A DNA stretch of 64,000 bases from a virus (Duplodnaviria > Caudoviricetes): positions 5,465 through 69,464 of IMG/VR virus record IMGVR_UViG_3300033074_001364, one strand, 5' to 3'. Position numbers and translations under genes: made by a program. This document shows positions 12,668 to 46,928 of the stretch, one piece after another. How positions within the stretch are numbered: position 1 is the first letter of the stretch; every line of letters starts with the position of its first letter. The notes beneath the pieces are model-generated. The model did no database searches. It was given only the letters and a program-made list of their open reading frames with translations, and was not told where the DNA came from.

Positions 12668-12670
12668 GGC

Positions 12671-12895
12671 TTAGTAATCCATCACATGTCCGGCCCAGCA
12701 GTGATCAAGCAGGCAGGCATCAATCGCATGGACAGATGCCAGCCCGGCGATTCCAGCACCCACCCCGATGAGGAAGTACGGATCGAACGGCAGTCCGGCT
12801 ACAACTATCGAGAGCATCGGAACGCTGAAGACGAAGATCATCAGCAGGAACATCCAGGCAGGCGACTCGGTGCGCCCGCACACTTCACACTTCAC
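12671..12895 (-). CDS. Small membrane protein
   Basis: Two hydrophobic segments, N-terminal CxxC. Confidence 0.6.
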   Translation of the reverse strand: MKCEVCGRTESPAWMFLLMIFVFSVPMLSIVVAGLPFDPYFLIGVGAGIAGLASVHAIDACLLDHCWAGHVMDY

Positions 12896-30174: not shown

Positions 30175-33100
30175 TACAGTCGAGCCCCTTCTGCCAGTGC
30201 CTTTGCCAGCGCTTCGTACACCAGCTTCATGAGCTGATCACGCGAGAGCTGTCCACCTGCGATCGTGCCAATGTTGATCGTGATGGCTTGTCCGTTGGAG
30301 TTGAGTCCTGTGCCAGCGAAGAAGCCACCGCCAGCAATGGTGGCGGGCTGACTGATCAGCGACGAGAAGGATCCCTGGTTCACGACGACGTTCGACATGA
30401 AGTTGGCAGCCTTGCGCTCTAGGGCAAGACGTTCTTCCTCGACCTCGATTAGGCGCTGGATCGTTTTTCGTAGCAGCTCGTCGTCCAGCCCCTTGACCTG
30501 CTTGAGGAACTCAGCGTCCTTCAGGAGCGAGAGAATCTCATCCTTGTTGGCTGCGGTCGCGCCTGGGATGGACGCCTGAAGGGCAAACGCCATCTTGAGG
30601 GCCTTCTCCAACTGATCACGGGGCAGGTCGCCGATGTCGAACAGGTTGATGCGCGGTGGCGATGGGTCCTTCCCGCCACCGATCTTCGGCACGTTGCCGA
30701 ATGACGGTGAACCGCTGAAGCCACCACCGAAGCCGGTGACAAGGCTGTCGAGAAGGTTTTGGAGTTGACGCTCAACCTGTGCAGCAGCGCTCTGAACCTG
30801 GTTTGCAGCCTGAACTGATGCTTGATTCGAAGCGTTGGCTCCGGTACGACCACGCTGAACGAAACGCTCACCGGCCTCATTGCCAAGCGAGCCGTCCATC
30901 CGCGCAACACCGATGAATGCGATCAACGGGTTGTTACGCATCGACTCGGCAGCACCAGCGTTGGCAGCAGCCAACTTGATGATCTGATCAATCACTTGGC
31001 TGATCACGTCGATGGATCCGCCGGACGCCACGATCAGGTCGTAGATGCGCTGCGTAAGCGTTTCGTTGCCCTTTGCGGCAGCGTCCGCGAACATCGGGTA
31101 CTGGGCAAGTTGCTCGCTGCTGGCAGCGACGAGTTGTGCGGCCAAGTCAGCAGCCTGTGAGACAAGTTGCTGTCCTTGCGCGAACTCCTCGGCGGTGATC
31201 TTGCCGGTACGGAAGCGCTCGGCAAGATCATCGAGGTCGTCGGCCTGATCCTTGAGGGTGGCCTTCACGAGTTCCGAGGCTTCGGCAGCAATGCGCTGTT
31301 CCTCGGTCATCTCGCTGATGCCCAGCGCAGCACGCAGTGCGGCTTCGTACTGGCGATCGAACTCAGTCGTGGTGCCATCGAGGGTTTCGTTCAACCCAGC
31401 GCCAGCGGTGAGGATGTCCTCGATTGAGACGAGTTGACTGTTGATCGCGCCGTTGGTGTCGAGGATCGCGGCCTTCATCCGTGCCTGTGATTCGGCGTTG
31501 GACTGGCCCGACTGCTCCATCTGAACGAGTGCTTGGCCCAGACGAGTGAGGTTCTCTCGCTGGTTCTCGTTAAATTGGAAGACAGGTTCGGAGATCCGGC
31601 CTTGCTTGCGATCCCCTCGTCCAGGTGTCGTTGGAATTCCGAACGACTCAGCGGCCTGCTCTGGCGTGAAGCCAGCACCAAGCAACGCTGCCTCGCGTGC
31701 ATTCTGATCAATGACGGTGCCACCAATCTCGATAGCAGCCATCGCCAGGGCCAATGGCAGGAATCGCTTCAGCAGGAAGGTGGCTGCTGCGATGCCTTTG
31801 CCCATCAATCCGAAGCTGACACCAGCCTGTGCCGCCGCGAGCGATGCGGCTGAGATCGCACCGCGAACGCCTGCGAACCCGATCAGGTTCAGCAGCGCAC
31901 CGCCGACGAACATGATGCCCTTGAAGGCAACGGCGAGAGCGATGAACGCGCCAACGCCACGCAAGACGTCGGGTGGCAGTGCTCGCAGCACATCGCCGAT
32001 CAACTTGAGGAAGTTCAGCAGTCCCTGGCCGGAGGCAATGATCTGCTCCCCGAACAGGTCATTGAATCCAGACTTGACCTGCTCGATGAACTGCGCGAAC
32101 TGTGGCCCGAGGGCGCTGTTGATCTTCGCGACGAGGCTGTCGAGGTTGCTGACGTCGGCCTGTCCGATGAGTTGAACTTCCCCGCGGATGTTCTTCATCG
32201 ACTCGTACAGGATCGCGAGGTCGGCCTTCGCACCTGGATTCAGGGGCGGAGTCAGTTCGGTGAACAGCTGGTCGAGCTTCTCAGTCTCGATGACGCCCTG
32301 CTGCTCCAGCGCGATGACGTCAAGGAGAACCTCGGTGACGCTGCGCAGGTTGCCCGCGGAATCGAAGATGCTGACCAAGCCACCAGTGATGGCTTGGAAG
32401 CCCTTCTCGGCCCGAGGGTCGTTCAGAATGGTGGCGAACAGCGTTCGGAAGGTGTTACCAACCTCGCTGCCGGTTCGCCCTGTTTCGAGGATGAACTCCC
32501 GCATCAGTGCGAGCAGGACAGGGAACTCAACCCCTGCCTCCCTGGCACCACGACCAGCCTGCTGGAAGCCGTCAATGAGGTCGGAGATCATGGTGGAGGC
32601 ACCACCACCGGCCACGACGATCTGGCCGATCACGTCCCCGAGCTTCTCTACGGGCACGTTCGCCTGATTCATAATGGCGATGAGGTTCGAAACCTCGGTG
32701 CCCACGTCTCGCTGCGAGACAGTGCTGAGCTTGCCCGCGTTCTCCAGCAGCAACTCGGCCGCGGCGGCACGCTGCGCACCCGCTTCGAGATCGAGGAACG
32801 CGCTCGCGGCGCGGTCAGCCTCACCCAGCAATTCCTCGACTGGTGTGACTGTGCTGACCGCAATGTCGAATACGTCGCGTACGAACTGCGGTGACTGCAT
32901 TTGGTTCAGGCCAGTCACCGCTTCGAGACGTCGCGTCTCGCGGTCGATCGTCGTCGCGAGGCCGACCGCTTGCGTAACGCCAGCGGCAGCGGCGGCGAGC
33001 GCTGCGTACAGCACGATCGTCTCGCCGATACGCGTGGCGTGGCGCTGGAACGAGGCGCTGGAGTTGTCAAGCGCATCGCGTTGAGCTCGTAGCTGCGCTG

Positions 33101-33569
33101 CTGATGCCTGCGCGGCTGGATTGATGCGACTCAAACCAACCGCAGCAGCGGACGTCGCTTGGTTATAGCGGCCAAAGGTCGGGCCACCCGCAGCAGTGAT
33201 CTGCTGAAGCAGCCGCATTTCCTTCGCTGTCTCCGCAACCGTGGGGGCGAAGCCCAGCGCACCCATCGCCCGCATTCCCGACTGCAATCCAGCGAGGCTG
33301 CGGGTAAGCGCCTGAACTGGCGATAGACTCGCCCTGGCGGCTGCTGCAACCGCTGCGATGGGAGCCGCACCGGCACCGCCAATGGGCTGACCGTTCGGGC
33401 CAAGAATTACACCACGCGCGGCGCCAGCGGCCGCAGCGGCGCGAGCACTCGCGGCCTGCGTGGCGTTGATTGCCTGCTGTGCTTGCAGTGCAGCGTTGCG
33501 CACCGCCTGCATCTGCGCGATAGCGAACGCAGCATTAGTTTGGAAGAAGATCGCGAAGTCTTGTCCCAC
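30174..33569 (-). CDS. Tape measure protein
   Basis: 1131 aa, Ala-rich helical, TP901-like core (LIDGFQQAG...TGSEVGNTFRT). Confidence 0.9.
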   Translation of the reverse strand: MGQDFAIFFQTNAAFAIAQMQAVRNAALQAQQAINATQAASARAAAAAGAARGVILGPNGQPIGGAGAAPIAAVAAAARASLSPVQALTRSLAGLQSGMRAMGALGFAPTVAETAKEMRLLQQITAAGGPTFGRYNQATSAAAVGLSRINPAAQASAAQLRAQRDALDNSSASFQRHATRIGETIVLYAALAAAAAGVTQAVGLATTIDRETRRLEAVTGLNQMQSPQFVRDVFDIAVSTVTPVEELLGEADRAASAFLDLEAGAQRAAAAELLLENAGKLSTVSQRDVGTEVSNLIAIMNQANVPVEKLGDVIGQIVVAGGGASTMISDLIDGFQQAGRGAREAGVEFPVLLALMREFILETGRTGSEVGNTFRTLFATILNDPRAEKGFQAITGGLVSIFDSAGNLRSVTEVLLDVIALEQQGVIETEKLDQLFTELTPPLNPGAKADLAILYESMKNIRGEVQLIGQADVSNLDSLVAKINSALGPQFAQFIEQVKSGFNDLFGEQIIASGQGLLNFLKLIGDVLRALPPDVLRGVGAFIALAVAFKGIMFVGGALLNLIGFAGVRGAISAASLAAAQAGVSFGLMGKGIAAATFLLKRFLPLALAMAAIEIGGTVIDQNAREAALLGAGFTPEQAAESFGIPTTPGRGDRKQGRISEPVFQFNENQRENLTRLGQALVQMEQSGQSNAESQARMKAAILDTNGAINSQLVSIEDILTAGAGLNETLDGTTTEFDRQYEAALRAALGISEMTEEQRIAAEASELVKATLKDQADDLDDLAERFRTGKITAEEFAQGQQLVSQAADLAAQLVAASSEQLAQYPMFADAAAKGNETLTQRIYDLIVASGGSIDVISQVIDQIIKLAAANAGAAESMRNNPLIAFIGVARMDGSLGNEAGERFVQRGRTGANASNQASVQAANQVQSAAAQVERQLQNLLDSLVTGFGGGFSGSPSFGNVPKIGGGKDPSPPRINLFDIGDLPRDQLEKALKMAFALQASIPGATAANKDEILSLLKDAEFLKQVKGLDDELLRKTIQRLIEVEEERLALERKAANFMSNVVVNQGSFSSLISQPATIAGGGFFAGTGLNSNGQAITINIGTIAGGQLSRDQLMKLVYEALAKALAEGARL

Positions 33570-33890: not shown

Positions 33891-34191
33891 CGCGCTCGAC
33901 CTCGCGGTCGCTGTCGAAGTACATCGCGCTTGACCCGCCGCCTTCCTTGCCGGGGGCGTGATCCTCGATGTATCGCGCGCATTTCTTGGCGGAATGCCAA
34001 ATTGACTTCGGTGGCCGCTGCTCCTCGGTTAGGTGCTCGAAGAACGACAGGATCCGACGGGCCTCGACCACGCAGTACGAGATCGTCCACGGCCAATCAC
34101 TGGGCGACTTCCAGCGGGAGAAGATCGGTTGTCCGCTGCGGTCAGCCGTGGCGACGATGTTCAGGAATCCAGCTGACCGAGCGATTTTCCC
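33883..34191 (-). CDS. Tail assembly chaperone, -1 frameshift extension
   Basis: GGGAAAA slippery heptamer at 34185-34191 opens frame GKIARSAGF... Confidence 0.75.
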   Translation of the reverse strand, partial: GKIARSAGFLNIVATADRSGQPIFSRWKSPSDWPWTISYCVVEARRILSFFEHLTEEQRPPKSIWHSAKKCARYIEDHAPGKEGGGSSAMYFDSDREVERAT

Positions 34192-34937
34192 AGGCCAGGC
34201 TCCATGTCCAGCAGTAGTGCGCGATGCGTATCGGCGAGTTGCGTATAAGCGGACGGTCGCTGCGAGCGGAACTTCTCCAACTCGCTCAAGGTCTTGAACG
34301 TCGGCTTCTTGTATCCCTTGTCGTTGAAGGTACAGCGCACGATCACTTCGGAGGTATAGCGCGACTGCCACTCGCTCGCCACGATCGTCTCGATGTGCGC
34401 GGGCTTCGCGCTTTCGAGCAGCGCATCGTGGTCGATCGCCTCCGCCTCCTTGTTGAGCGCAAGACGCGCGGACTCGATGGCTTCCAGCAGGGCCGTCAGG
34501 CGATCCTTCTCAGCCGCTTCGACCGCCTCCTCGTAGGCGTCCTCCTCCTTTGAGGTGGTGATGCCTTCTGGCTCTGGAACGTACTCCCGCTCCTCCAGAG
34601 AGTTCTGCTGAATCTCCACCGCCCTCGTCATCAGATGGCCGTTGACCCAGATGTTTCTCAGCTGCTCAGGGTCGGCGTCTTCGAGCGCTTCGATCAGGAG
34701 GTTCTGGTGCTCCTCGCTCTTGGGGTCCGCGAGGCGCTTGCGCATCGCGCGTCGCGCAGCGTTCGCGGCGCCCATCGCGACCTGGCGCTCAATGTCGCTC
34801 GGGCGGCGTACGAACAGGCGCAGCGTCGCGTCAACGTAGCGATCGCCCTCGCGCTTGCGCACGGTGAGATCGAGGGGCTCGGGGTCAGTTAGGAGTTCGT
34901 CAAGCGTGACGAAGCGGGGCGTCGGGGTATCGGGCAT
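34161..34937 (-). CDS. Tail assembly chaperone
   Basis: ATG after GGAAGGA; upstream of tape measure; ends at the slippery site. Confidence 0.8.
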   Translation of the reverse strand: MPDTPTPRFVTLDELLTDPEPLDLTVRKREGDRYVDATLRLFVRRPSDIERQVAMGAANAARRAMRKRLADPKSEEHQNLLIEALEDADPEQLRNIWVNGHLMTRAVEIQQNSLEEREYVPEPEGITTSKEEDAYEEAVEAAEKDRLTALLEAIESARLALNKEAEAIDHDALLESAKPAHIETIVASEWQSRYTSEVIVRCTFNDKGYKKPTFKTLSELEKFRSQRPSAYTQLADTHRALLLDMEPGLGKSLGQLDS

Positions 34938-34949
34938 AGGATTCCTTCC

Positions 34950-35004
34950 AACAAATAAGAACGCCCGGTAGACGAGCGCAAGCGAGCGCACGCGTTCCGG
35001 GCGT
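34950..35004 (-). terminator. Terminator-like hairpin with U-rich tail
   Basis: acgcccgg/ccgggcgt stem followed by TCTTATTTGTT on the minus strand. Confidence 0.5.
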
Positions 35005-35033
35005 GGGGTTCCTTCCTGAGATGGGTATGAGTA

Positions 35034-35548
35034 GGCCCCGCTGGCAGGACGAGTGACCAGCGGGGCCGGATGCCTCCCCGGAGGGAGGACGAATGGAGCA
35101 GGGACTCTACCCTGACGACAGCCCTATCGTTGATGTTAGTGTCAACTGTTGTACTGCCGACCACCCGTTGGGTTCCACCCACAGATTCGACCTTGTTAGG
35201 GCCTCCCGCTGAGTCAGTACCGTTGGCCCTGCGCTCAGTCGGTTTTCTTCTGCCGGATGTGCGTTCTGGCCCTCTAGGGATAGCCAGATTCCGCCATCTC
35301 CCTGCCCAAGGAGCAACCCCTGAGCATTATCTAATCGGCATACTCCCTTGCGGGTTCGGGCCAGTATGCCAGTGGCCCGGTCTGACGATGGTAAGGCGAC
35401 CCCACCATCCGCGGGCTCGTTACCCGACTCGTCGAGCTCTTTGGTCGGCGTCCACCCGAGCCTCAAGAGGGAGCTCGTCATCGGTTGTCATTCAGGAGGG
35501 CTAGCCAGCTGAATGTTCCGACGATCACGGTGGTTGTCCTCATCGACT
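35034..35548 (-). ncRNA. Candidate large structured ncRNA (~450-515 nt)
   Basis: Own promoter; many nested helices, GNRA loop, two possible pseudoknots; strong 3' hairpin 35034-35067. Confidence 0.65.
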
Positions 35549-35554
35549 GACGAC

Positions 35555-35584
35555 AGTCTACCACACACCTACGCTAGTAGTCAC
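35555..35584 (-). promoter_or_regulatory. Phage promoter motif GTGACT-N18-TAGACT
   Basis: Motif match upstream of the candidate RNA. Confidence 0.78.
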
Positions 35585-35605
35585 GGGGTAGTAGGTGAAG
35601 ATTCC

Positions 35606-36748
35606 TTACGCCACCACGCGCAGCAGGTTCGATGGGATGCGGTTGACGACCGAGTTCGGCAGCGATCCATTCCAGTGGGCCGTCGCCTCATACTCGGCGT
35701 AAATCTTCCCCGTGTTGCCCGCGTAGTCGATGACGTAGGCGCCGAACTCCTGTAGGGCTCGGGCGACGATCTTGCCGGTGGCCGTCAGGGCGCGGTTCTG
35801 TGAATCTCTCACCTGGTCGAGGTTGACGGACGGATCGAGGAAGATGCGGCTGCCCTCTGGGATACCACCATTGGTGGGTCCATCGCTCTTGGTGGCTGGA
35901 TACACATGCTGCGGTCCGACGCTGTTGCAGCCCACCACGAGAGCATGGGGGATGCGACCCGCTGCAATCTCATGCGGGCGGATCAGGCCAGCGTAGTAGG
36001 GGACACCAGCGCCACGAGAGGCGTACACGGTCGGGTGCGTGGTGCCCTTGCCGTACATGCCGCCGACCAGCAGGGATCCGTTCGATGCCGTGGCGGTGCG
36101 TGCTGTTCGGTTGACGTTACGGACCTGCCACAGGTCGAGCTCGTCGCCGTTCGTCAGGTCAACAGCGATGATCTGACCATCACTGCCAGCCGATACGGTG
36201 AAGTCCGATGGAAGCCGAACGGTGAATCGCTTGTTCGGAGCATCGCTGGCAGAGGTGCCCTTGTAGACCTTGGCTGCACCCGTGCAGGTGATCGTCCAGA
36301 CCGGCGCAGACTCGTTGGCGAAGTAGACCGGGTAGCTGTACTGGGTGGGGTCGATGCTGACGAAGGCGATGCGATTGATCCACTCAGCAGAGCGTGAATG
36401 CACCTGTGGGTTGGCAGGTAGTGGCGTGTTCCATGGAGAGTCAGCGCTGTAGGGGCGCGACAGTGGGTTCCATGAGGTGGGGTCTGGCTCTGGCTCAGGC
36501 TGTGGATCAGGCTCGGGATCCGGCTCAGGTTCTGGTTCCGGGTCAGGTTCGGGGTCTGGCTCGGGGCCAGGCTCAGACTCTAGGAGATTCGCCAAGCGGT
36601 GGAGGAACGCCACCATCTGGGCACGCGACGTCGGTTGGTCGGGCGCAAACTTCCCGCCGCCTACTCCGAACGTGATGCCGTTCTCGGCTGCCCACTCAAT
36701 GTCGTCGTAGAAGGGATGATTAAGGGGGACATCGCTGAAGCGGGTCAT
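35606..36748 (-). CDS. SLH-domain protein with (EPDP)n linker and uncharacterised C-terminal domain
   Basis: FSDVPLNHPFYDDIEWAAENGIT.G....F.P...TSRAQM. Confidence 0.8.
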   Translation of the reverse strand: MTRFSDVPLNHPFYDDIEWAAENGITFGVGGGKFAPDQPTSRAQMVAFLHRLANLLESEPGPEPDPEPDPEPEPEPDPEPDPQPEPEPDPTSWNPLSRPYSADSPWNTPLPANPQVHSRSAEWINRIAFVSIDPTQYSYPVYFANESAPVWTITCTGAAKVYKGTSASDAPNKRFTVRLPSDFTVSAGSDGQIIAVDLTNGDELDLWQVRNVNRTARTATASNGSLLVGGMYGKGTTHPTVYASRGAGVPYYAGLIRPHEIAAGRIPHALVVGCNSVGPQHVYPATKSDGPTNGGIPEGSRIFLDPSVNLDQVRDSQNRALTATGKIVARALQEFGAYVIDYAGNTGKIYAEYEATAHWNGSLPNSVVNRIPSNLLRVVA

Positions 36749-36762
36749 GGGTCCTCGAAGGT

Positions 36763-36837
36763 TGGAGCCGCCAGGGTGAATCGAACACCCGCTGAGGCCA
36801 TACAAAGGGCTCTGTCTGCCACTAACGATATGGCGGC
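36763..36837 (-). tRNA. tRNA-Thr(TGT)
   Basis: Cloverleaf, loop TT-TGT-AT, one stem mismatch, CCA. Confidence 0.75.
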
Positions 36838-36863
36838 TTGGAATAGTCCCCCTAGATTTGAAT

Positions 36864-36938
36864 TGGAGGTCCAGGTCCGATTCGAACGGACGTGACTGCG
36901 TTACGACGGCAGCATCCTAGCCACTAGATGACTAGACC
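36864..36938 (-). tRNA. tRNA-Thr(CGT)
   Basis: Cloverleaf, loop GT-CGT-AA; body lacks typical C2-G71. Confidence 0.7.
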
Positions 36939-36939
36939 T

Positions 36940-37014
36940 TGGTACCCAATGACAGAATCGAACTGCCACCTACTGGATGTAAGCCAGTCGTCCTATCCGT
37001 TAGACGAATCGGGC
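36940..37014 (-). tRNA. tRNA-Val(TAC)
   Basis: Cloverleaf, CCA. Confidence 0.9.
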
Positions 37015-37182
37015 AGGGTGGGCACGCGTGGGCCGAAGCCAGACCGTGCCGCTGTCCGTTGCGGGAGCGCAGTACTACGCGTAACCCCGGACCGGAATGA
37101 ATGGGAGAGTGCTACATGGCATTGCTTTCAGAGAACCGCCCGAGGCGGCACGCCTTCGCATTGCTCCTTATGCGTGATGAAA

Positions 37183-37256
37183 TGGAGCCATCGTCCATAA
37201 TCGAAATGGAACCTTCCCCTTACCACAGGGATGCTCGGCCTTCGAGCTACGACGGC
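37183..37256 (-). tRNA. tRNA-Thr(GGT)
   Basis: Cloverleaf, CCA. Confidence 0.88.
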
Positions 37257-37261
37257 TTGTG

Positions 37262-37337
37262 TGGTCTGAGTGGAGCGGCTCGAACGCCCGACAGCCGCGC
37301 CCCAAACGCGGTGCTCTACCTACTGAGCTACACTCAG
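37262..37337 (-). tRNA. tRNA-Pro(TGG)
   Basis: Cloverleaf, CCA. Confidence 0.9.
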
Positions 37338-37348
37338 ACGACTAATAC

Positions 37349-37436
37349 TGGCGGATGGACGAGGATTCGAACCTCGGTAGGCTTGCGCCCGCAATCCTTA
37401 GCAGGGATGCCCGATTGGCCGCTCCGGCACCCATCC
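37349..37436 (-). tRNA. tRNA-Ser(GCT)
   Basis: Long variable arm, G73, CCA. Confidence 0.92.
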
Positions 37437-37437
37437 G

Positions 37438-37513
37438 TGGAGAGCCTGGTCGGGATCGAACCGACGTCCAGCTGCTTAAAAGGCAGCCGCTCTGCCGCTG
37501 AGCTTACAGGCCC
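37438..37513 (-). tRNA. tRNA-Lys(TTT)
   Basis: Cloverleaf, CCA. Confidence 0.9.
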
Positions 37514-37541
37514 TTGATAAGGCGGCAAACTTCTGTATAAG

Positions 37542-37615
37542 TGGAGCACTCTCTCGGATTCGAACCGAGGTGACGTGGGTTGCAACCACGCCGCTGGCCG
37601 CTCGCGCAAGAGTGC
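37542..37615 (-). tRNA. tRNA-Cys(GCA)
   Basis: Cloverleaf, U73, CCA. Confidence 0.92.
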
Positions 37616-37616
37616 T

Positions 37617-37691
37617 TGGTCAGGGGCATCGGCTATGATCCGATCCTGTCAGCGCCACAAGCTGAAGTGCTGCCACCTACACCAGCCCCTA
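37617..37691 (-). tRNA. tRNA-His(GTG), atypical
   Basis: Cloverleaf; T-loop ATCATAG, A73, no encoded G-1. Confidence 0.75.
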
Positions 37692-37761
37692 GTTGGAAGC
37701 GAGCCGCCGGTACTCTCACCTTTCAACCGGCATCGTTCGCCCTGTGAGGGGACTCGCTGTG

Positions 37762-37810
37762 TGCTGGATATGGTCGGCAACAAGTGCGTGACTGCCGACC
37801 ATATCCAGCA
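37762..37810. repeat. Perfect 18-bp inverted repeat
   Basis: tgctggatatggtcggca-N13-tgccgaccatatccagca. Confidence 0.92.
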
Positions 37811-37836
37811 ATACCGTAGCGTTTCCGGTACGGTTG

Positions 37837-37909
37837 TGGCACCGCAGACAGGAGTCGGACCTGTAGCAAGTCGTTTTGGAGACGACCGCGCTCCCACGAG
37901 CTCGGCGGC
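37837..37909 (-). tRNA. tRNA-Trp(CCA)
   Basis: Loop CT-CCA-AA, G73, short D-loop, T-loop TCCGACT. Confidence 0.8.
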
Positions 37910-37916
37910 ATGGATG

Positions 37917-37993
37917 TGGTCGCCCTCCTGCGATTCGAACGCAGAACCTCCTCCTCTTGAGGGAGTCGCCTCTACCAGTTGGGCTAGAGGGCG
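37917..37993 (-). tRNA. tRNA-Leu(CAA), short variable loop
   Basis: Cloverleaf, CCA. Confidence 0.85.
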
Positions 37994-38039
37994 TAGACGG
38001 GCCGGGGAATCCTCGCGAGGGCTGTCCGACCCGTATGAA

Positions 38040-38115
38040 TGGTGGTCCCCCAGAGATTCGAACTCTGACTGGCACGCTCCTAAGGCGTGTGCCTCTACCG
38101 TTGGGCTAGAGAACC
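38040..38115 (-). tRNA. tRNA-Leu(TAG), short variable loop
   Basis: Cloverleaf, CCA. Confidence 0.88.
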
Positions 38116-38121
38116 AGGTGT

Positions 38122-38196
38122 TGGTGGAGCTAAGTGGATTCGAACCACCGACCCGCTGCTTGCAAAGCAGCCGCTCTCCCACTGAGCTACAGCCCC
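38122..38196 (-). tRNA. tRNA-Ala(TGC)
   Basis: Cloverleaf, G3-U70, CCA. Confidence 0.95.
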
Positions 38197-38205
38197 ATGA
38201 ATGAT

Positions 38206-38281
38206 TGGCGGAACCGAAGGGATTTGAACCCTCGACCTTCAGCGTGACAAGCTGACATGCTGACCGCTACACCACGGCTCC
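38206..38281 (-). tRNA. tRNA-Asp(GTC)
   Basis: Cloverleaf, G73, CCA. Confidence 0.95.
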
Positions 38282-38348
38282 GCGGTGTCGTCTGTTGCGC
38301 CAAACCCTACAAATCTGTGAGTTGGCAGCGAACAAGTGACACTGATGT

Positions 38349-38420
38349 TGGCGCCTCCCGAAGGATTCGAACCCTCAATTGCGGCTTAGAACACCGCTAC
38401 CGCTCCTATCGGAGAGAGGC
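38349..38420 (-). tRNA. tRNA-Arg(TCT)
   Basis: Loop GT-TCT-AA, reduced D-arm, CCA. Confidence 0.75.
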
Positions 38421-38428
38421 AGAATGAG

Positions 38429-38506
38429 TGGAGCGGCAGGTGGGATTCGAACCCACGAGAAGCCTGCTTGGAAGGCAGGTGCCATAGGCCGCTAGGCGAC
38501 TACCGC
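38429..38506 (-). tRNA. tRNA-Gly(TCC)
   Basis: Cloverleaf, U73, CCA. Confidence 0.93.
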
Positions 38507-38507
38507 T

Positions 38508-38559
38508 TGGTGGAGCGTCCCCGGACTCTTACCGGATTGGCTAGCATCATGCTCGCCCC
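38508..38559 (-). ncRNA. 52-nt tRNA-like mini-RNA with Ala-type acceptor end
   Basis: GGGGCG/CGCTCC stem with G3-U70, A73, CCA, T-like arm, no anticodon arm. Confidence 0.45.
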
Positions 38560-38563
38560 AAGT

Positions 38564-38641
38564 TGGTACGCTCGGGGTGACTCGAACACCCGACGCGCAG
38601 GTTCGAAGCCTGCCGCTCTGGATCCACTGAGCTACGAGCGT
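38564..38641 (-). tRNA. tRNA-Arg(TCG)
   Basis: Cloverleaf, CCA. Confidence 0.92.
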
Positions 38642-38728
38642 GTGGTCGGTCGGGGACTCACCGCCCTACTGGCGGGCCTCGCCCCTCCCGATTGCGTACG
38701 CGCCCCACGAGGCTAAGGGCAGATGGAA

Positions 38729-38805
38729 TGGTACCGCCTGCCGGATTCGAACCGGCGATCTCCGGGGTGAAAACCCGGCGCCTTGGGCCACTTGGCTAAG
38801 GCGGC
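38729..38805 (-). tRNA. tRNA-Glu(TTC)
   Basis: Cloverleaf, CCA. Confidence 0.92.
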
Positions 38806-38964
38806 ATGTGGGGCAGAGCGGAGTAAGGGAATGCACCGGGCGTATACACCACGGGTCCTACTTCAAGCGATTACCCCAGAGTCGGCGGACGAAGGCCCTT
38901 GCCCGCCAGTCCACGTCTTGGCCTACTACCTAACCTGCGAACAGGGGGTGCCGTGGACCGTAGT

Positions 38965-39039
38965 TGGTGCCCTGACAGGGGGTCGAACCCTGGTCGACGC
39001 CGTGAGAAGGCGCCATCCTGACCACTAGACGATCAAGGC
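38965..39039 (-). tRNA. tRNA-Glu(CTC)
   Basis: Cloverleaf, CCA. Confidence 0.92.
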
Positions 39040-39044
39040 GATGT

Positions 39045-39120
39045 TGGTGAGCCTGGTAGGGATTGAACCTACGACCTTGGGCTTAAGAGGCCCCTGCTGC
39101 TGCCGCTGAGCTACAGGCCC
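39045..39120 (-). tRNA. tRNA-Lys(CTT)
   Basis: Cloverleaf, CCA. Confidence 0.92.
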
Positions 39121-39121
39121 G

Positions 39122-39198
39122 TGGCTGCCACCCAAGGAATCGAACCTCGAAGCACCTGATTCAAAGTCAGGCCGCTGTACCTATTTGCGTAGGTGGCA
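39122..39198 (-). tRNA. tRNA-Gln(TTG)
   Basis: U1-A72, G73, CCA. Confidence 0.92.
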
Positions 39199-39298
39199 AT
39201 GTTCTGTGTCGTATACATACCCTGTGAGAGTATAACGACGTTACACTTCATACGATGTGTAAGCGTTGCTATCACTGACTGCAAGAGATGCTTACAGA

Positions 39299-39383
39299 TG
39301 GTGCCTTAGGTGGGATTCGAACCCACGAACCCAGAGGGGCCACGTTTACAGCGTGGCTGCTTTGGCCGCTTGCATACCTCGGC
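39299..39383 (-). tRNA. tRNA-Tyr(GTA)
   Basis: Long variable arm, CCA. Confidence 0.92.
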
Positions 39384-39449
39384 ACTGTGTAGTCGAGCCC
39401 TTGCAAGAGTTACCCGGACAGTTTGGTCCCGTCCAGTTGCTCGACATGA

Positions 39450-39538
39450 TGGTGGTGTAGGGTCCGGTTCGAACGGATACTCGCACTGTCCTATCAGCTG
39501 GTGACGGCGCTTTCACGCGTACTGTTCGCGTCCCTACA
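39450..39538 (-). ncRNA. Atypical tRNA-like element
   Basis: TGTAGGG/CCCTACA acceptor, TTCGAAC T-loop, D-like hairpin, irregular long central arm, CCACCA end. Confidence 0.5.
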
Positions 39539-39682
39539 TGATGAATAACGATGGGCGCCGTCCTTACCACTTTCACTGGATCACGGTCGCCCACCGGAGA
39601 CTCAGCACCGAGGTCTAACACTTCACCCGAAGGTGGCGGCGTTATAGGGATCCCACGACGCCGCTCTCGATGCCTACATAAA

Positions 39683-39758
39683 TGGTGCCGCCCGCTGGTT
39701 ACGATCCAGCGACCTCCGCGGTTTCAGCGCGGCGCTCTACCAGCTGAGCTAGAGCGGC
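39683..39758 (-). tRNA. tRNA-Phe(GAA)
   Basis: Cloverleaf; T-loop ATCGTAA. Confidence 0.9.
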
Positions 39759-39821
39759 AAGTACGGGGCTGGTGCTAACGAGGCCACTTACTCGGCTCCA
39801 CGATCAGCCGACACCCCTGAT

Positions 39822-39905
39822 TGGCTGGCGCGGGAGGACTTGAACCTCCAAGCCTTACGGCGGCTGGTTAACAGCCAGCTGCGGCTACCATTTCGCCACA
39901 CGCCA
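39822..39905 (-). tRNA. tRNA-Asn(GTT) with long variable arm
   Basis: Loop CT-GTT-AA, G73, variable arm GCC-GTAA-GGC. Confidence 0.85.
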
Positions 39906-39987
39906 ACGCTAATTCCCCAGTTGCCCAGATCCATTACGGAGGACTGCTCCTACTGGTAATCGCCGGACCCGCCACAGTCGGGATAAT

Positions 39988-40064
39988 TGGTAGCCCCCGT
40001 CCGACTCGAACGGACGACCCTCACCATATCAGAGTGATGCTCTAACCAACTGAGCTAGAGGGCT
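39988..40064 (-). tRNA. tRNA-Ile(GAT)
   Basis: Cloverleaf, CCA. Confidence 0.93.
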
Positions 40065-40174
40065 ACGACTGGATACAGCTTCCCGGCGCATCAAGCCGCT
40101 GCCGCGTTATCCCATGACTCTGCGCGCATCCCCACGGGATTAATACCGGGCCACCTACCTCTGCATCCATGATT

Positions 40175-40244
40175 TGGTTGCGGGTTGGGGGTACGATCCC
40201 CACGCCATGAGGTTATGAGCCTCTGGAGGCACCATGCACCCGCG
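40175..40244 (-). tRNA. tRNA-Met(CAT), initiator-like C1:A72
   Basis: 70 nt, reduced D-arm, T-loop ATCGTAC, lacks the three G-C pairs of the initiator anticodon stem. Confidence 0.75.
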
Positions 40245-40631
40245 ATGTTGTGATTCCGCCTACACAATGCAGGATCACAAGCGCTACTTGCTACCCCTGC
40301 ATCACCACTCCAACGCTAGTAGCGAACTAGCAGCCTAACCCCGGCGGAATCGTATGAATCGGATCGGAGTACCACCATTCCGAGGCGCTTCAGGGAGCAG
40401 TGCGCGACCGCTTACGCCGGCTAATAAATAGGTGGTGTTTGCCTGGACACGCGCTTGTTACTGATGCGTTCCCGAAGGACCATCGAGTACGTCGATCCAG
40501 AGCGATGGTTGACATTCCACCGCCGTCCTCCCTCGTCGGCGTCACCCGACTTCCTAACTGCTTCCACCATGGCGAAGATGGCTCCCTCACAGGTTTGATC
40601 TCTGAGGATTCAGTATTCACCACCGTATGAA
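40245..40631 (-). ncRNA. Candidate structured RNA(s) in the longest tRNA spacer
   Basis: Closing helices GGTGGTG/CACCACC and GATTCCGCC/GGCGGAATC plus internal hairpins. Confidence 0.45.
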
Positions 40632-40706
40632 TGGAGCGGGCGCCGGGAGTCGAACCCGAACGTCAACCTTGGCAAGGTTGCAGGCAGACCGTTACATCAC
40701 ACCCGC
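40632..40706 (-). tRNA. tRNA-Gly(GCC)
   Basis: Cloverleaf, U73, CCA. Confidence 0.9.
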
Positions 40707-40805
40707 TAGTGCCGGTTACGGATCCGGCTTGGCTTCTAGCCGGTTCGCGTGTCCGACATCACCAACGTGCTGCCCCCGTCATACCATGACGGAAACAGGA
40801 ATGAT

Positions 40806-40882
40806 TGGCTGCACAGGAACGAGTCGAACGTTCAAGCACCTGCTTCAGAGGCAAGCGGCTCTACCAATTTGCCTACTGTGCA
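40806..40882 (-). tRNA. tRNA-Gln(CTG)
   Basis: U1-A72, G73, CCA. Confidence 0.92.
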
Positions 40883-40902
40883 GCGAGTACAGATTGTTAA
40901 GG

Positions 40903-40991
40903 TGGCGGAGCGAGAGTCGAGTCGAACGCTCAAGGCCCTAGGGCTCGTCCGGGTTCAAACCGGGTGCCGTCGCCAATCGGCTTGCCGCTCC
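40903..40991 (-). tRNA. tRNA-Ser(TGA)
   Basis: Long variable arm, G73, bulged T-stem, CCA. Confidence 0.85.
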
Positions 40992-41009
40992 GTCGAATCA
41001 ATTGAGGCC

Positions 41010-41039
41010 ACTCTACCATACTAGTCAAGTAGTAGTCAC
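41010..41039 (-). promoter_or_regulatory. tRNA-array promoter GTGACT-N18-TAGAGT
   Basis: Motif match 18 nt upstream of the first tRNA. Confidence 0.75.
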
Positions 41040-41692
41040 GGCAGGTAGGCAAGTGGGTTCTGCCAGTACCCGTCGCGCGCGAGCGCGAGGTGCAGATGGC
41101 ACCCGGTCGCATTGCCGGTCATGCCCACGCCAGCGATCGCGACGCCAGCGCTGACGTACGCGCCGACGTTGACGAGCGCGGTCGATAGGTGGTTGTAGCT
41201 CACCAGCAGCCCCTCATCGGTCAGCTGCTCCACCACCAAGCCGCCACCGTTGTTCTTCCAGCCCATCCAGGTGATGACGCCGGATCCCAACGCAGCCACG
41301 GAAGTGCCACAGGGCGCTCCGATGTCGATGGCGGTATGCACCTGAGAGTAGTAGGTGGTGATCCTGCCTGCGACCGGCCACACGCGTACGAATGAGGGCG
41401 GTGGTGGTGGTGTTGCGGTGGGGGCTGCCAACGGTGTCGCATCAGGGTCGATGGCGACTGGCGTTGGGAAGGAGGTGGGTTCGGGGGTCGGAGTCGCGTC
41501 GGCGGTGCGCTGCGATAGCGGCGACCGCGATGCGTCGTTGCGGACGTTCGCTGTGACGATGGAGAGCAGGCGGGGCTCTGGCGGCGGCGCCTGGTCGGCA
41601 GCGAGAACGTTGGCGACGAGGTTGGGGTAGGTCGAGACGCTAACGAGCGCCAGCAAGCCTACGGCAGCAAGATGGGAGAGCCATTTCTTCAT
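41036..41692 (-). CDS. M23 family metallopeptidase with signal peptide and Pro/Thr linker
   Basis: HTAID, YNHL, GNATGCHLH motifs. Confidence 0.9.
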   Translation of the reverse strand: MKKWLSHLAAVGLLALVSVSTYPNLVANVLAADQAPPPEPRLLSIVTANVRNDASRSPLSQRTADATPTPEPTSFPTPVAIDPDATPLAAPTATPPPPPSFVRVWPVAGRITTYYSQVHTAIDIGAPCGTSVAALGSGVITWMGWKNNGGGLVVEQLTDEGLLVSYNHLSTALVNVGAYVSAGVAIAGVGMTGNATGCHLHLALARDGYWQNPLAYLP

Positions 41693-41751
41693 TTTGCCCT
41701 GTGGGTTACAGCGGGGGAAGTGGACGGGACGCCTCCCCCGCCGCCAGGACT

Positions 41752-41781
41752 AGCCTACCACAGTAGCCACGCAGTAGACCT
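41752..41781 (-). promoter_or_regulatory. Variant promoter AGGTCT(ACT)-N18-TAGGCT
   Basis: Same spacing as the motif, degenerate -35. Confidence 0.45.
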
Positions 41782-42490
41782 ACGCGGCGCGAGCGAGAGC
41801 GATTGCTTCGGCAGCGTACGCGGCCTCTAGGACGTACTCGGGGATCGAGGGTAGCTCGCTGTCGAGGCGCGTACCTTTCCACCCGTTGCAGATCGGATGA
41901 GACACCCGCGTATTGGCGTACGAGTGTTCGCCATTTCCAGACAAGGGGATAATGTGTTCTAGGTCCCAATCATCAGGATCGACGGCTAGAGTGCAAATCC
42001 CACACAGCCCTTTGTCGCGTTGCCAGACTACTTGGCGATCGACATCCTCGATCCAGCTGTTTCGCTTGCGAGCGCGACGATTGGCAGCATAACTGAGCAC
42101 CTTGTCCCTGTTCGTTCGCTTCCAGTTCTCATGGTAGTCAGGATTCGCAGATGCCCATTCGATGTTCTTGGTCGGGTTGGCTAGGCGAAACTGACGTCCA
42201 GCCTCCAGGGCGCGTTCGTGATTATCCCAATACCACTTACGTGCCCGCGCTCTCGCTTCATCTCGATGCTCGGCAGCATACTGTCTGCACTTCTCGCGAC
42301 TCGCGTCGATGTCGGCGTAGTAGCGGTCGAGTTGCTTACGTGCTATCACCTCACGATTCGCAGCGTAATACGCTCGCCCGTAATCTGACTTACACGGCTT
42401 ACATCGGTCGTCGTATCCGTCGCGGGATCGAGAGCGTCGATGGAACTCATCAAACGGTTTCTCGATCCCGCACGCATAGCAGCGTTTCAC
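41780..42490 (-). CDS. HNH endonuclease with N-terminal Zn finger
   Basis: CYACG...CKPCK; CGIC...LEHIIPLSGNGEHSYANTRVSHPICNGWK. Confidence 0.9.
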   Translation of the reverse strand: MKRCYACGIEKPFDEFHRRSRSRDGYDDRCKPCKSDYGRAYYAANREVIARKQLDRYYADIDASREKCRQYAAEHRDEARARARKWYWDNHERALEAGRQFRLANPTKNIEWASANPDYHENWKRTNRDKVLSYAANRRARKRNSWIEDVDRQVVWQRDKGLCGICTLAVDPDDWDLEHIIPLSGNGEHSYANTRVSHPICNGWKGTRLDSELPSIPEYVLEAAYAAEAIALARAA

Positions 42491-42498
42491 TGGATGCT

Positions 42499-42528
42499 AG
42501 TATATCGCACTAGACTTCCAGTAGTCAC
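42499..42528 (-). promoter_or_regulatory. Phage promoter motif GTGACT-N18-TATACT
   Basis: Motif match 8 nt upstream of the HNH GTG. Confidence 0.75.
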
Positions 42529-42529
42529 G

Positions 42530-43771
42530 TTACGCAGCGGTGTGCTTGGTCAGAAGCCAGTCGAAGCCTGCCGATCCACGGAACGGCAGAGACTTCCCTA
42601 CTTGCGTGCCAACGCGTACGTCCTTCGAATCGCCGGTGATCGCGCAACCCGAGAGAACGTCGGTTCGCAAAACAGTCAGCGTCTTCGGATCGAGGAACTC
42701 GATCTTGAACTGAATGTCATCCCGCCACCCGTCGATCGGGAAGTCGGTGACGGTGCTGTTCGGATCACCGTCCTGCATCAGCTTCTCCTCAGCGTAATCC
42801 TGGCTGAAGATCGTGATGGTGCCGGTGACTTCGGCAGGAGTCTGTCGCCCTGCGGCGATCTGCTGGGACCCCATACCCACTTCCTGCGTCGGCTGGAAGC
42901 TGACAGTGGCCTCAATCGACTGTACGCCTCGCGTGCGTCGGTCGTTGCCGCTCGCCGTGATGGTGACAGGAATGAAGTAGTAGCCACGGATGGCCGCAGG
43001 AGAGAAGGTGTCCTTGGCGTCGAACGGATCGTCCCACTCCGAAGGAGTGCTGCCAGAACGCTGGTAGGCAGCCATGACGTACGAGCCCGAGGCGATGCCT
43101 GCTGCCGCAGACGAGCTGATCGTCAGCGACGTGCCCGCAACGCTGTAGTCGTCGCCCTCAAGCAGGTAGACGGATGAACCGCTTACCTCTGCGTAGGCGA
43201 GGCTGATCAAGTTGTTGCCTGCGCTAACGCCCTTAGTCAAGGGGACTGGCGTTGCCGACAGCGTGTACGCGGTCTGGCCGCCAGACGTAACCGCTAGGTG
43301 GTCGACCTGAACGAAGCGCTCGAACGCGGTCTTATTGGTGCTCGTTAGGTTGAACGTCTCGGTCGCGCTCGCGTTCGTGCTCGCGGCGAGGCGATACGAA
43401 GCGACAGCGGCCTGCTTGACGTAGACCGACTGGATGAACGAGGTGCGCGCGTCGTTGCGCTGGCGCATCTCCAAGTCCACGTCCTGGTTGCCGAGCATGG
43501 TCAGCAGCGAGGAGTCGGTGAAGGTCGAGCCAGACGGACGGTTAGCGATCTGTGAGATCAGCTTGGCGTTGACGAGGTTCGCCTCGACATCGACCGTGAC
43601 GGTAGGGGTATCGAATGTGGTGCCGACGATAGACTCGTTGCCGAGTTCTCGCTCGTCAGTCGCTGGGCGATCGCCGGTCTTGTTCACACCCTGCGAACGG
43701 CGCGCAGCGCCAGAGGCATACGGGGTGTGGATGATCGGAAGCAGCGCAGCTGGATCCTGGGACAGTCTCAT
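42530..43771 (-). CDS. Major tail protein
   Basis: Ser/Thr-rich, follows neck genes; VTGTITIF segment. Confidence 0.7.
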   Translation of the reverse strand: MRLSQDPAALLPIIHTPYASGAARRSQGVNKTGDRPATDERELGNESIVGTTFDTPTVTVDVEANLVNAKLISQIANRPSGSTFTDSSLLTMLGNQDVDLEMRQRNDARTSFIQSVYVKQAAVASYRLAASTNASATETFNLTSTNKTAFERFVQVDHLAVTSGGQTAYTLSATPVPLTKGVSAGNNLISLAYAEVSGSSVYLLEGDDYSVAGTSLTISSSAAAGIASGSYVMAAYQRSGSTPSEWDDPFDAKDTFSPAAIRGYYFIPVTITASGNDRRTRGVQSIEATVSFQPTQEVGMGSQQIAAGRQTPAEVTGTITIFSQDYAEEKLMQDGDPNSTVTDFPIDGWRDDIQFKIEFLDPKTLTVLRTDVLSGCAITGDSKDVRVGTQVGKSLPFRGSAGFDWLLTKHTAA

Positions 43772-45566: not shown

Positions 45567-46847
45567 CTACGCAGCGGCAGGTAGCGCCTCCGCATCGCTG
45601 GCGCTGCGATTCGCGAGCGCCTCGGTGATGATGGTGTCGAGTTGTTCAGCCTTGGAGGCCCACGAGTGGCGCTGCGCGAACTCGTAGCCGCGCTCCGCAG
45701 TCGCTGCTGCCTCATCCCGATTCAGGTAGACGTGATACAGCTGGCGCGAGAGGTCCTTCCAGTCAGGAAGTGCGAAGTAGGTGAGGCAGCCAGGCTCGCC
45801 TGGGATTAGGTCGAGGACCTTGATGAAGTACCCACGCCCGTTGTCGTGGAGCTCGCGCTGCGGACCAAACTTGGTCGCGATCACTGGCGTCTTGCACGCC
45901 ATCGCTTCCAGCGAGGGAATCCCGAAGCCTTCGCCGCGGGTCGGGTAGGCTAGCACGTCAGCGGCGTTCATAAACACCGCCATCTCCTCTTGAGAGAACT
46001 GGCTCGCGTTGTCCATGATCACGGCATCCTGCACGCCCGTGAGGGATGCGAGGTTACGCAGTTGCCAGCCACCGTTGATGTTGGACGGCATCGCTGATGT
46101 GTGGGGGATCAGGAAGGCGTTGCGTGCTTTCTTCTTGAAGTCCGCGTAGGCGCGGAACAGGGCAGGCAAATCCTTGCGGAACTGATTCGTTGAAACCGAG
46201 TAGACCAAGAACTTGTCCTTGAGCCTCGGTGCCTTGCCAGCGTTGTGGTTGGCGAAGATTTCCTCTAGCCGCTCTTTAGCTTCCTGCTTGTCCATCGGCT
46301 TGTAGAGGTCGAGGTCGACGCCGTGGTACAGGACGTTGGCGTTCGCAGCAAACTCAGGATCGAGATCGGCGAACAGGCCGTGCTGCCAGTGGGTGTAGAA
46401 GATATTGACGTCGTACTTGCGGGCAGCATCGAGGAAGGTCGGCGGACACGGCTGAGAGTCGAGCGGCGCGTACAGAACCTTCATCGCCTTCGATTGCGCG
46501 AAGGCAGAAGGTGAGCCGTCATCATTGACGGTGTACTGGTGGGCAATGGGGTAGTCATTTAGGACCATCGCCACGTCCCATTCGCGGGACTGGATCCACT
46601 CGTTCAGGCGGATGCGGCCCCAAGCATCGTATGCCTCCCAACGCCCGTTCGCTGCGGGTCGCCACCAGCCCGCAGCGATCTTTTCGTACGGGGTATCTGC
46701 TGGACCCATATCGAGGAAGTTGATTGCGACATGCGTGATGTCGTAACGCCCGGTGTTGTGTAGGCCAGTGAGTAGGCCATTGGAAACCTGAGAGAAGCCC
46801 GTGTGGGCTGCGCCGTCGCCGGCGAAGATGAGCTTGATCCGAGACAA
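45567..46847 (-). CDS. Glycosyltransferase family 4 in head-tail module
   Basis: NQFRKDLP, ADVLAYPTRGEGFGIPSLEAMACKTPVI. Confidence 0.9.
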   Translation of the reverse strand: MSRIKLIFAGDGAAHTGFSQVSNGLLTGLHNTGRYDITHVAINFLDMGPADTPYEKIAAGWWRPAANGRWEAYDAWGRIRLNEWIQSREWDVAMVLNDYPIAHQYTVNDDGSPSAFAQSKAMKVLYAPLDSQPCPPTFLDAARKYDVNIFYTHWQHGLFADLDPEFAANANVLYHGVDLDLYKPMDKQEAKERLEEIFANHNAGKAPRLKDKFLVYSVSTNQFRKDLPALFRAYADFKKKARNAFLIPHTSAMPSNINGGWQLRNLASLTGVQDAVIMDNASQFSQEEMAVFMNAADVLAYPTRGEGFGIPSLEAMACKTPVIATKFGPQRELHDNGRGYFIKVLDLIPGEPGCLTYFALPDWKDLSRQLYHVYLNRDEAAATAERGYEFAQRHSWASKAEQLDTIITEALANRSASDAEALPAAA

Positions 46848-46928
46848 GCGATGTTCCTTCCGTGTATGCTGCGCTCGCATTGGGATTCCCGTCCTATGCT
46901 GAGGACCGGCCCTCACGGGTCGGTCCTC

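Follow-up and report, generated by a model that had tools for sequence, protein, structure and literature searches.

The tRNA islands of phages such as T4, T5 and the cluster C mycobacteriophages (about 30 tRNAs) are dense clusters of CCA-encoding tRNA genes on a single strand, which cover most or all amino acids and are accompanied by small open reading frames (ORFs), homing endonucleases and odd RNAs. In late operons of other phages, typified by the lambda pR'-6S RNA-tR' arrangement and by T-phi of T7, promoter-proximal or mid-operon terminators set the transcription of the structural genes that lie downstream. The large non-coding RNAs (ncRNAs) ROOL and GOLLD are often situated beside tRNA islands (bioRxiv 10.1101/2024.12.08.627333), and a transfer-messenger RNA (tmRNA) without a coding sequence is reported for mycobacteriophage DS6A (cited in PMC11915505). 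Here we describe a 7.6-kb block (positions 34940-42530) that holds 29 tRNA genes, genes for an HNH endonuclease, an M23 metallopeptidase and an SLH-domain protein, and a leader RNA, and that splits the tail operon of an uncultured tailed phage with a genome of about 100 kb. The 64,000-nucleotide (nt) stretch that was analysed, hereafter the window, comprises bases 5465-69464 of the 69,464-bp IMG/VR contig IMGVR_UViG_3300033074_001364, which is rated 59% complete. The window is about 60% G+C and nearly all of its genes are on the minus strand, as are all the tail genes, block genes, tRNAs, spacers, leader segments, promoter copies and the terminator for which positions are given below. In our view this is a tRNA island that a family of large siphoviruses has inherited vertically from an ancestor, with the tail tube gene on one side and the genes for the chaperone and the tape measure on the other. 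We put the probability of this reading at about 0.75, a figure that covers jointly the ancestry of the island, its organisation as a promoter-to-terminator unit and its use as a landing pad for other genes.

A first-pass annotation, made from the letters of the window alone, had described the block as interposed between a major tail gene ending at 42530 and a tail chaperone starting at 34937, and this observation as a whole was confirmed, the flanks being borne out by domain matches, structural comparison and a slippery site. The upstream flank (42530..43771) encodes a protein of 413 amino acids (aa). Three of its 16 homologues matched Pfam Phage_tube_2, and its AlphaFold model (predicted local distance difference test score, pLDDT, 71) gave Foldseek probabilities of 1.00 to the tail tubes of T5 (pb6), DT57C and P74-26 (7qg9, 8ed0, 9iny and 8xan; E 8e-6 to 2e-4); a search of PDB sequences with a profile of the protein returned zero matches. 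As modelled, it is a tail tube (major tail) protein of the duplicated-domain T5 pb6/P74-26 type with an Ig/CBM-like insertion. Downstream of the block are two overlapping ORFs (34937-33883), the first of which (34161-34937, ATG at 34937) encodes the tail assembly chaperone G. A slippery heptamer, G GGA AAA, is present at 34185-34191, ten codons upstream of the G stop, and the -1 frame, which reads ...PGKIARSAGF..., is open for about 100 codons to 33883, giving the GT extension. The gene for a 1131-aa tape measure protein (30174-33569) follows, and in relatives, too, homologues of the chaperone sit ahead of the tape measure gene; when the chaperone protein was searched against viral contigs, one spurious match only was obtained.

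The array itself (36763..40991) has 29 tRNA genes, the number given at first pass, which together serve all 20 amino acids and are clustered on one strand among capsid, tube, chaperone and tape measure genes as is typical of a phage tRNA island. ARAGORN found 26 canonical tRNAs at default settings and a further three, the non-canonical Ser(UGA), Trp(CCA) and Met(CAU), when its thresholds were slightly relaxed; 21 in the window reached the Rfam tRNA gathering score, with 37-69 bits. We regard the three weak tRNAs as real because they are conserved in relatives (contigs, given L and G numbers here, that were reached through homologues of the tube protein and have tube identities of 48-79%). Thus tRNA-Ser(UGA) (40903..40991), the first of the array, is 92% identical to its L009 counterpart, the initiator-like tRNA-Met(CAU) (40175..40244), which carries the initiator signature C1:A72, a mismatch, and whose T loop is aberrant, differs from L011 by a compensatory change in the T stem, and the low-scoring tRNA-Trp(CCA) (37837..37909) is kept in L009 and L023. 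CCA is encoded in each of the 29, position -1 is most often U, and the trailers, which are A/U-rich, start A-U-(U/C)-A-U. With their CCA ends, RNase P-type 5' contexts and predicted cloverleaves the tRNAs look processable, and the suggestion that RNase P and 3'-end nucleases would punctuate the transcript is plausible from these features. Two individual tRNAs can be mentioned here. The tRNA-Asn(GUU) has a long variable arm and measures 84 nt both in the window (39822-39905) and in the 48%-identity relative L018 (13420-13503), and it measures 75 nt in L009. In L017 (17477-17550) a tRNA with a CUA anticodon (an amber suppressor, called 'Pyl' by ARAGORN) is found between His and Cys.

It can be seen from the relatives that the island is old. 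Eleven of them (L022, L014, L023, L009, L011, L013, L016, L017, G001, L019 and L018) have tRNAs at the same junction, and in every relative in which the junction could be read, except L015, which has none, the tRNAs follow one common order. This order begins Ser(UGA)-Gln(CUG)-Gly(GCC)-(Arg)-Met-(Ile)-Ile-Asn; arrays with a readable far end close Cys-Lys-Ser-Pro-Thr-Val-Thr(-Thr). The arrays are large in L016 (37 tRNAs), L017 (33), L018 (30), G001 (29) and L009 (27), number at least 23 and at least 19 in the cut contigs L019 and L023, respectively, and are small in L011 (8), L013 (4) and L015 (0). When a maximum-likelihood tree was built from the tube protein, both well-supported deep clades were seen to include arrays of 29-37 tRNAs, and the 8-tRNA L011 is the sister of the 27-tRNA L009, which makes the array of L011 a recent internal deletion. 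The L011 array (11391-12737) is composed of the first seven members of the family order and Thr(CGU), that is Ser-Gln-Gly-Met-Ile-Asn-Phe...Thr(CGU). Read from these sequences, the simplest history is that the large array is ancestral and that at least two or three reductions came later. Moreover, contigs from three studies contain almost identical pieces of the HNH, M23, SLH and leader regions, and therefore the arrangement in the window is not an assembly artefact of a single sample.

The block also has its own predicted signals for transcription. A candidate promoter motif, ACTACT-N-..TATACT, has ten copies in the window, all of them on the minus strand, where chance would give 0.06, and we recovered the three full copies and one variant that had originally been recognised within the block. 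One copy (42499..42525) is upstream of the HNH gene. The second (41010..41036) is predicted to drive the tRNA array, with the -10 box ending about 18 nt before the first tRNA, and an equivalent motif is found upstream of Ser(UGA) in L009, L022, L023, L014 and L017. The third (35555..35581) lies ahead of the leader RNA and is conserved in L009 and L011. The variant (41761..41771), between the HNH and M23 genes, has the upstream box only, with two mismatches, and is weak evidence by itself. The most likely interpretation is that the block acts as a promoter-to-terminator RNA unit within the tail operon, which would supply a full set of tRNAs late in infection. We envisage that a phage promoter placed right after the tube stop codon would start a polycistronic precursor whose first residues lie almost at the 5' end of tRNA-Ser(UGA), and that host RNase P and 3'-end nucleases would release 29 CCA-bearing tRNAs. 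The resulting set for 20 amino acids would sustain the translation of structural proteins late in infection, and the unit would stop at an intrinsic terminator 10-25 nt ahead of the chaperone ribosome-binding site.

Between the stop codon of the SLH gene and the ATG of the chaperone there are 668 nt, which include the promoter copy at 35555-35581, and this region is predicted to give a non-coding leader RNA of about 610 nt ahead of the chaperone. Its 5' domain (35333..35549) is 67% identical to L009:9843-10062. Over these approximately 220 nt the comparison with L009 gave 58 pairs, 13 of them compensatory and 0 broken, with 100% of cells paired, for two sequences only and a structure derived from the same pair; slid controls gave 1-5 compensatory pairs and 30-51% pairing. 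From this covariation, the 5' domain is probably a conserved folded RNA, an exception among the non-tRNA stretches of the block. The middle part of the leader (35005..35332) can be partly aligned to the L015 leader (nhmmer E 4e-8), and as later parts align with the leaders of L011 and of L015, which has no tRNAs, the leader belongs to the upstream region of the chaperone rather than to the tRNAs. A four-way MAFFT alignment of leaders was too poor to use, only pairwise pieces being homologous. The 668 nt hold no conserved ORF, and we rejected a coding role for 35107-35481, as there was no tblastn conservation, the ATG was unconserved and there were 1-nt indels relative to L009. The large RNA postulated in the first-pass annotation is upheld in part: its first 220 nt or so covary between two sequences, and its far end is a predicted terminator, described below.

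An alternative view of the same 610 nt is that they form an independent, trans-acting large ncRNA of the GOLLD/ROOL kind, which ends at 34955 and is no regulatory leader. Such an RNA would have its own promoter and terminator and a covarying 5' domain, and it would adjoin the tRNA island, starting 1.2 kb past the last tRNA with only the SLH gene between. We nevertheless think it unlikely. The 5' domain was found in the window and L009 only, and when 34000-43500 was searched with cmscan at E up to 1, neither GOLLD nor ROOL nor any other family was matched, all matches being to the tRNA clan or due to chance. Leader lengths vary from 373 to 668 nt in the close clade and from 140 to 340 nt in the distant one, and a homologous leader is present in the tRNA-less L015. 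In addition, the essential chaperone gene has no other promoter in the interval from the terminator to its ribosome-binding site. A scan of viral contigs with the leader core pattern gave nothing, and one match in bacterial genomes, located inside a leuD-like coding gene of Phenylobacterium, was judged to be due to chance.

The spacers between the tRNAs had been expected to release additional ncRNAs on processing, most of the long ones having been seen to fold into closed helices. We scored the 14 window spacers of 46-387 nt as z values relative to shuffled sequence and found about four with z at or below -2.3, of which two fold far better than shuffles; two or three more are near z -2.5 and the remainder are unremarkable, which supports the description only in part. 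Among 100 spacers from eight genomes the mean z was -1.46, compared with -0.76 in matched coding windows (Mann-Whitney p 0.01); the extra folding of spacers over coding sequence is real but small. In the window, a 145-nt insertion between Trp and His (37692..37836; z -6.9) forms three hairpins, one of about 20 bp, and is specific to the window, Trp and His being 3-11 nt apart in relatives. The Gln-Gly spacer (40707..40805; z -3.3 to -4.3) contains a 13-bp hairpin and is 1-99 nt long in relatives. The Met-Ile spacer (40065..40174; z -0.8) lies at the point at which tRNA-Ile(UAU) is encoded in relatives and, from traces left in the alignment, is probably a decayed copy of that tRNA.

It could be argued that the spacers are nonetheless functional small RNAs (tRNA mimics, minihelices or structured domains) that are produced by tRNA processing and are under selection of their own. 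The excess folding over coding sequence and the great stability of a few window spacers would fit, and a spacer of distant relatives does carry a genuine extra RNA, a tmRNA reduced to its tRNA-like domain of 81-85 nt (L018:14053-14133, plus strand; L016:13632-13714, plus strand; L007:12076-12160, minus strand). There is also a 52-nt two-hairpin motif, 86% identical and non-syntenic, that the Trp-His insertion (37703-37753) has in common with L019 (15137-15188), with one compensatory and one wobble change. We regard this proposal as quite improbable, since with the tRNAs masked no more than four short matches linked the spacers to any relative, spacers at syntenic positions can be as short as 1 nt or exceed 400 nt, the most structured spacer is confined to the window and the Met-Ile spacer stands in the place of a tRNA. 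Likewise, the Infernal search described above yielded zero Rfam families here, and a model (R1) built from the reduced tmRNAs of relatives picked up nothing but ordinary tRNAs in the window, none of them above 18 bits. Lengths and sequences of spacers thus differ between close relatives, and as judged from these comparisons the spacers are mostly products of turnover, namely insertions, hairpins and decayed tRNAs, with no conserved set of RNAs among them.

Some further details of these elements are given for completeness. The reduced tmRNAs have G3:U70, end in ACCA and lack a tag reading frame, the L018 copy scores 60 bits against Rfam tmRNA, and there are seven compensatory pairs across the three copies; the element is absent from the closest relatives of the window as well. 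The 52-nt motif was not found elsewhere in the loci, and a pattern scan of viral contigs found none. The window has in addition a 52-nt minihelix resembling an acceptor/T arm (38508-38559), which is Ala-like with G3:U70, A73 and CCA. It is specific to this lineage because the corresponding Arg(UCG)-Gly(UCC) gap is only 1-6 nt in L009, L023 and L016, and it was rejected as a relative of the reduced tmRNA, as model R1 does not detect it.

At the far end of the block an intrinsic terminator is predicted (34951..35004), made up of a GC-rich hairpin (34961-35004) and then UCUUAUUUGU, which leads straight to the chaperone ribosome-binding site GGAAGGA. L009, L016 and L018 also have a terminator-like hairpin with a U tract, 10-25 nt ahead of the ribosome-binding site of the chaperone, and the arrangement therefore recurs in both clades. 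With a terminator ahead of the chaperone, this gene and the tape measure gene would be reached only via read-through, and dependence on read-through would keep their products far below the level of the tube protein. Most likely, then, the predicted terminator of the block serves to restrict how much transcription enters the genes of the low-copy chaperone and tape measure proteins, and the 5' domain of the leader may modulate the read-through or may be a separate RNA. That the domain at 35333-35549 and the terminator 330 nt downstream together make up a new class of cis-regulatory or nanostructure-type phage RNA, through which a late-expressed tRNA island would be linked to regulated read-through towards the genes for chaperone and tape measure, is a tentative idea that we would not expect to hold in full; if true, it would make the tRNA island part of the stoichiometry control of the tail operon and no passive insert. 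A related explanation, in which the 5' domain is a cis-acting antitermination RNA similar to put or EAR that allows polymerase to pass the downstream terminator, accounts for a fold that begins at the predicted transcript start, for the terminator that follows and for the need of tail gene expression for read-through. It is very doubtful, however, as there is no similarity to the Rfam put or EAR models and as the 5' domain is missing in L016 and L018 despite the same terminator arrangement.

The three protein-coding genes first noted in the block were verified with Pfam and PHROG. The free-standing HNH endonuclease (41780..42490; 236 aa; Pfam HNH E 6e-6, PHROG 1035 E 5e-26) has an N-terminal zinc ribbon, and the M23 metallopeptidase (41036..41692; 218 aa; Pfam E 6e-20) is predicted to be secreted, having a Sec-type signal peptide, a Pro/Thr-rich linker and the M23 domain. 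Neither gene is at this site in the five closest relatives, L022 (79% tube identity), L014 (76%), L023 (74%), L009 (71%) and L011 (68%), where the first tRNA is 50-140 nt after the tube gene, and therefore the two constitute a private insertion of about 1.5 kb. The nearest homologue of the HNH protein (34% identity) is encoded in the head module of L015, and there are HNH homologues elsewhere in the L011 genome too. The position of M23 genes varies: L013 has one behind the tube gene, G001 one within the array and L014 one in the head region. Other lineages have different guests in the island: a CAP-like protein, M23, an AAA ATPase, NT5C and a dGTP diphosphohydrolase-like protein in G001, VWA, HNH, AAA and PTH2 in L017, and fn3 and a C1 peptidase in L019. 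The island is thus an insertion hot spot, and we picture it as a landing pad on which, in the window, a leaderless HNH gene, a secreted M23 enzyme and an SLH-anchored, MltA-like wall enzyme would have settled, each with its own promoter copy or variant or co-transcribed with the tRNAs. The HNH mRNA is likely to be leaderless because the GTG start at 42490 is 9 nt past the -10 box of the promoter copy at 42499-42525. A leaderless HNH gene, an SLH domain and a P74-26-like tube together are a hint of a host that uses leaderless translation.

The SLH gene (35606..36748; 380 aa; SLH E 3e-11) has its ATG at 36748, 15 nt after the last tRNA. Its product starts with a single SLH repeat (residues 2-45), where SLH-anchored surface proteins usually have three, followed by a Pro/Glu linker and a C-terminal domain; a signal peptide was not found in it, nor was a homologue in the loci of the relatives. 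The C-terminal 270 residues correspond to a widespread domain without a Pfam family, which elsewhere is fused to other surface modules and in which D190, D289 and D341 are invariant. A Foldseek search with this domain found nothing. The top six VIA-align matches of the domain model (pLDDT about 90) were all of the MltA family, with 172-181 residues aligned, and because their Z values are only 4.4-6.0 (below the tool's noise guide of 7-8) the assignment of a fold like that of MltA-type lytic transglycosylases, a double-psi beta-barrel, is suggestive at best. It is speculation that the protein forms a trimer, as in a tail fibre, in which three single repeats could rebuild a three-SLH module. The two proteins had been taken for cell-surface proteins; to judge from their domains both look like cell-wall enzymes, the SLH protein lacking a signal peptide.

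The idea that the block is a self-contained 7.6-kb cassette that owes its recent arrival, or its movement, to the HNH endonuclease, with tube and chaperone genes adjacent in relatives that lack it, can hardly be sustained, since the HNH gene at the upstream edge, the promoter copies that bracket sub-blocks and the scarcity of tRNAs in L015, L013 and L011 have to be set against the array being present without HNH at the same site and in the same order in L022, L014, L023, L009, L011, L016, L018 and G001, against a small array with members of both ends of the large one that fits internal deletion (L011, sister to L009), and against HNH homologues situated elsewhere in L015 and L011. Presence of the array does not track the HNH gene, and mobilisation by HNH, put forward as a possibility in the first-pass annotation, is largely refuted; the block may still be called self-contained as a predicted expression unit that has promoters of its own and finishes in a terminator, and not as a mobile cassette. 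The comparison with relatives that was proposed at that stage thus tells against the earlier interpretation in that the block is a fixed ancestral region, and does so only in part with regard to the spacers, leaving partial support for it.

Several points weigh against an ancestral island organised as a promoter-to-terminator unit. The relatives are mostly metagenomic contigs, some of them cut inside the array. The promoters, processing sites and termination are predictions, and the covariation of the leader comes from the single pair of sequences described above. Finally, L011 and L015 have no obvious terminator beside the chaperone ribosome-binding site, and therefore the read-through model is not universal in the family.

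The remainder of the structural module surrounds the block in the following order of transcription: the capsid and GT4 region, small connector genes, the 413-aa tube protein, the block, the two overlapping ORFs and the tape measure gene. The first gene encodes a lambda E-type capsid protein (48006-49052). A GT4 glycosyltransferase (45567-46916) is kept within the head-tail module of every relative examined, and L016 adds epimerase and aminotransferase genes; this conservation in the structural module hints at glycosylation of the virion. When a collection of phage genomes was searched with the block by megablast and with the terminase and tube protein by tblastn, no nucleotide or protein match was obtained. 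The phage family, with a tube protein unmatched in that collection, about 30 tRNAs and a genome of more than 90 kb, appears to be uncultured.

Taken as an ancestral tRNA island, the block is a stable, vertically inherited organ of a virus family, which has kept its order while gaining genes, shrinking and hosting accessory genes, and it should be useful for asking how phage tRNA sets evolve and why they are retained. Its fixed position between tube and chaperone, bracketed by a predicted promoter and terminator, suggests a testable link between tRNA supply and the dosage of tail proteins. The locus further contributes a candidate new structured RNA and an SLH-linked putative wall-enzyme domain that has no Pfam family.

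When set beside described systems, the locus combines familiar and unfamiliar traits. As with the tmRNA reported for DS6A (cited in PMC11915505), the arrays of L016, L018 and G001 hold a tmRNA consisting of a tRNA-like domain of 81-85 nt, whereas the window has none. The HNH gene resembles free-standing HNH homing endonucleases and promoter-bearing 'moron' genes in having its own predicted promoter, in being present or absent among close relatives and in having homologues elsewhere; as an explanation of the block these systems fall short, as HNH makes up about 0.75 kb of the 7.6 kb (about 1.5 kb with M23). Like ROOL and GOLLD (PMC5737381; bioRxiv 10.1101/2024.12.08.627333), the leader is a predicted ncRNA of several hundred nt that adjoins a tRNA island. 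Unlike them, it has no covariance-model match, is conserved over about 220 nt in two genomes only and is a chaperone leader ending in a predicted terminator. The terminator differs from tR' of lambda and T-phi of T7 in that it follows a tRNA array and a long structured leader, and no antiterminator protein was identified. Finally, the block is like the islands of T4, T5 and the cluster C mycobacteriophages in being a dense, same-strand cluster of CCA-encoding tRNAs. It is unlike them in being fixed inside the tail operon, with one order down to 48% tube identity, and in being bounded by what are predicted to be a dedicated promoter and a terminator controlling access to the genes for chaperone and tape measure.

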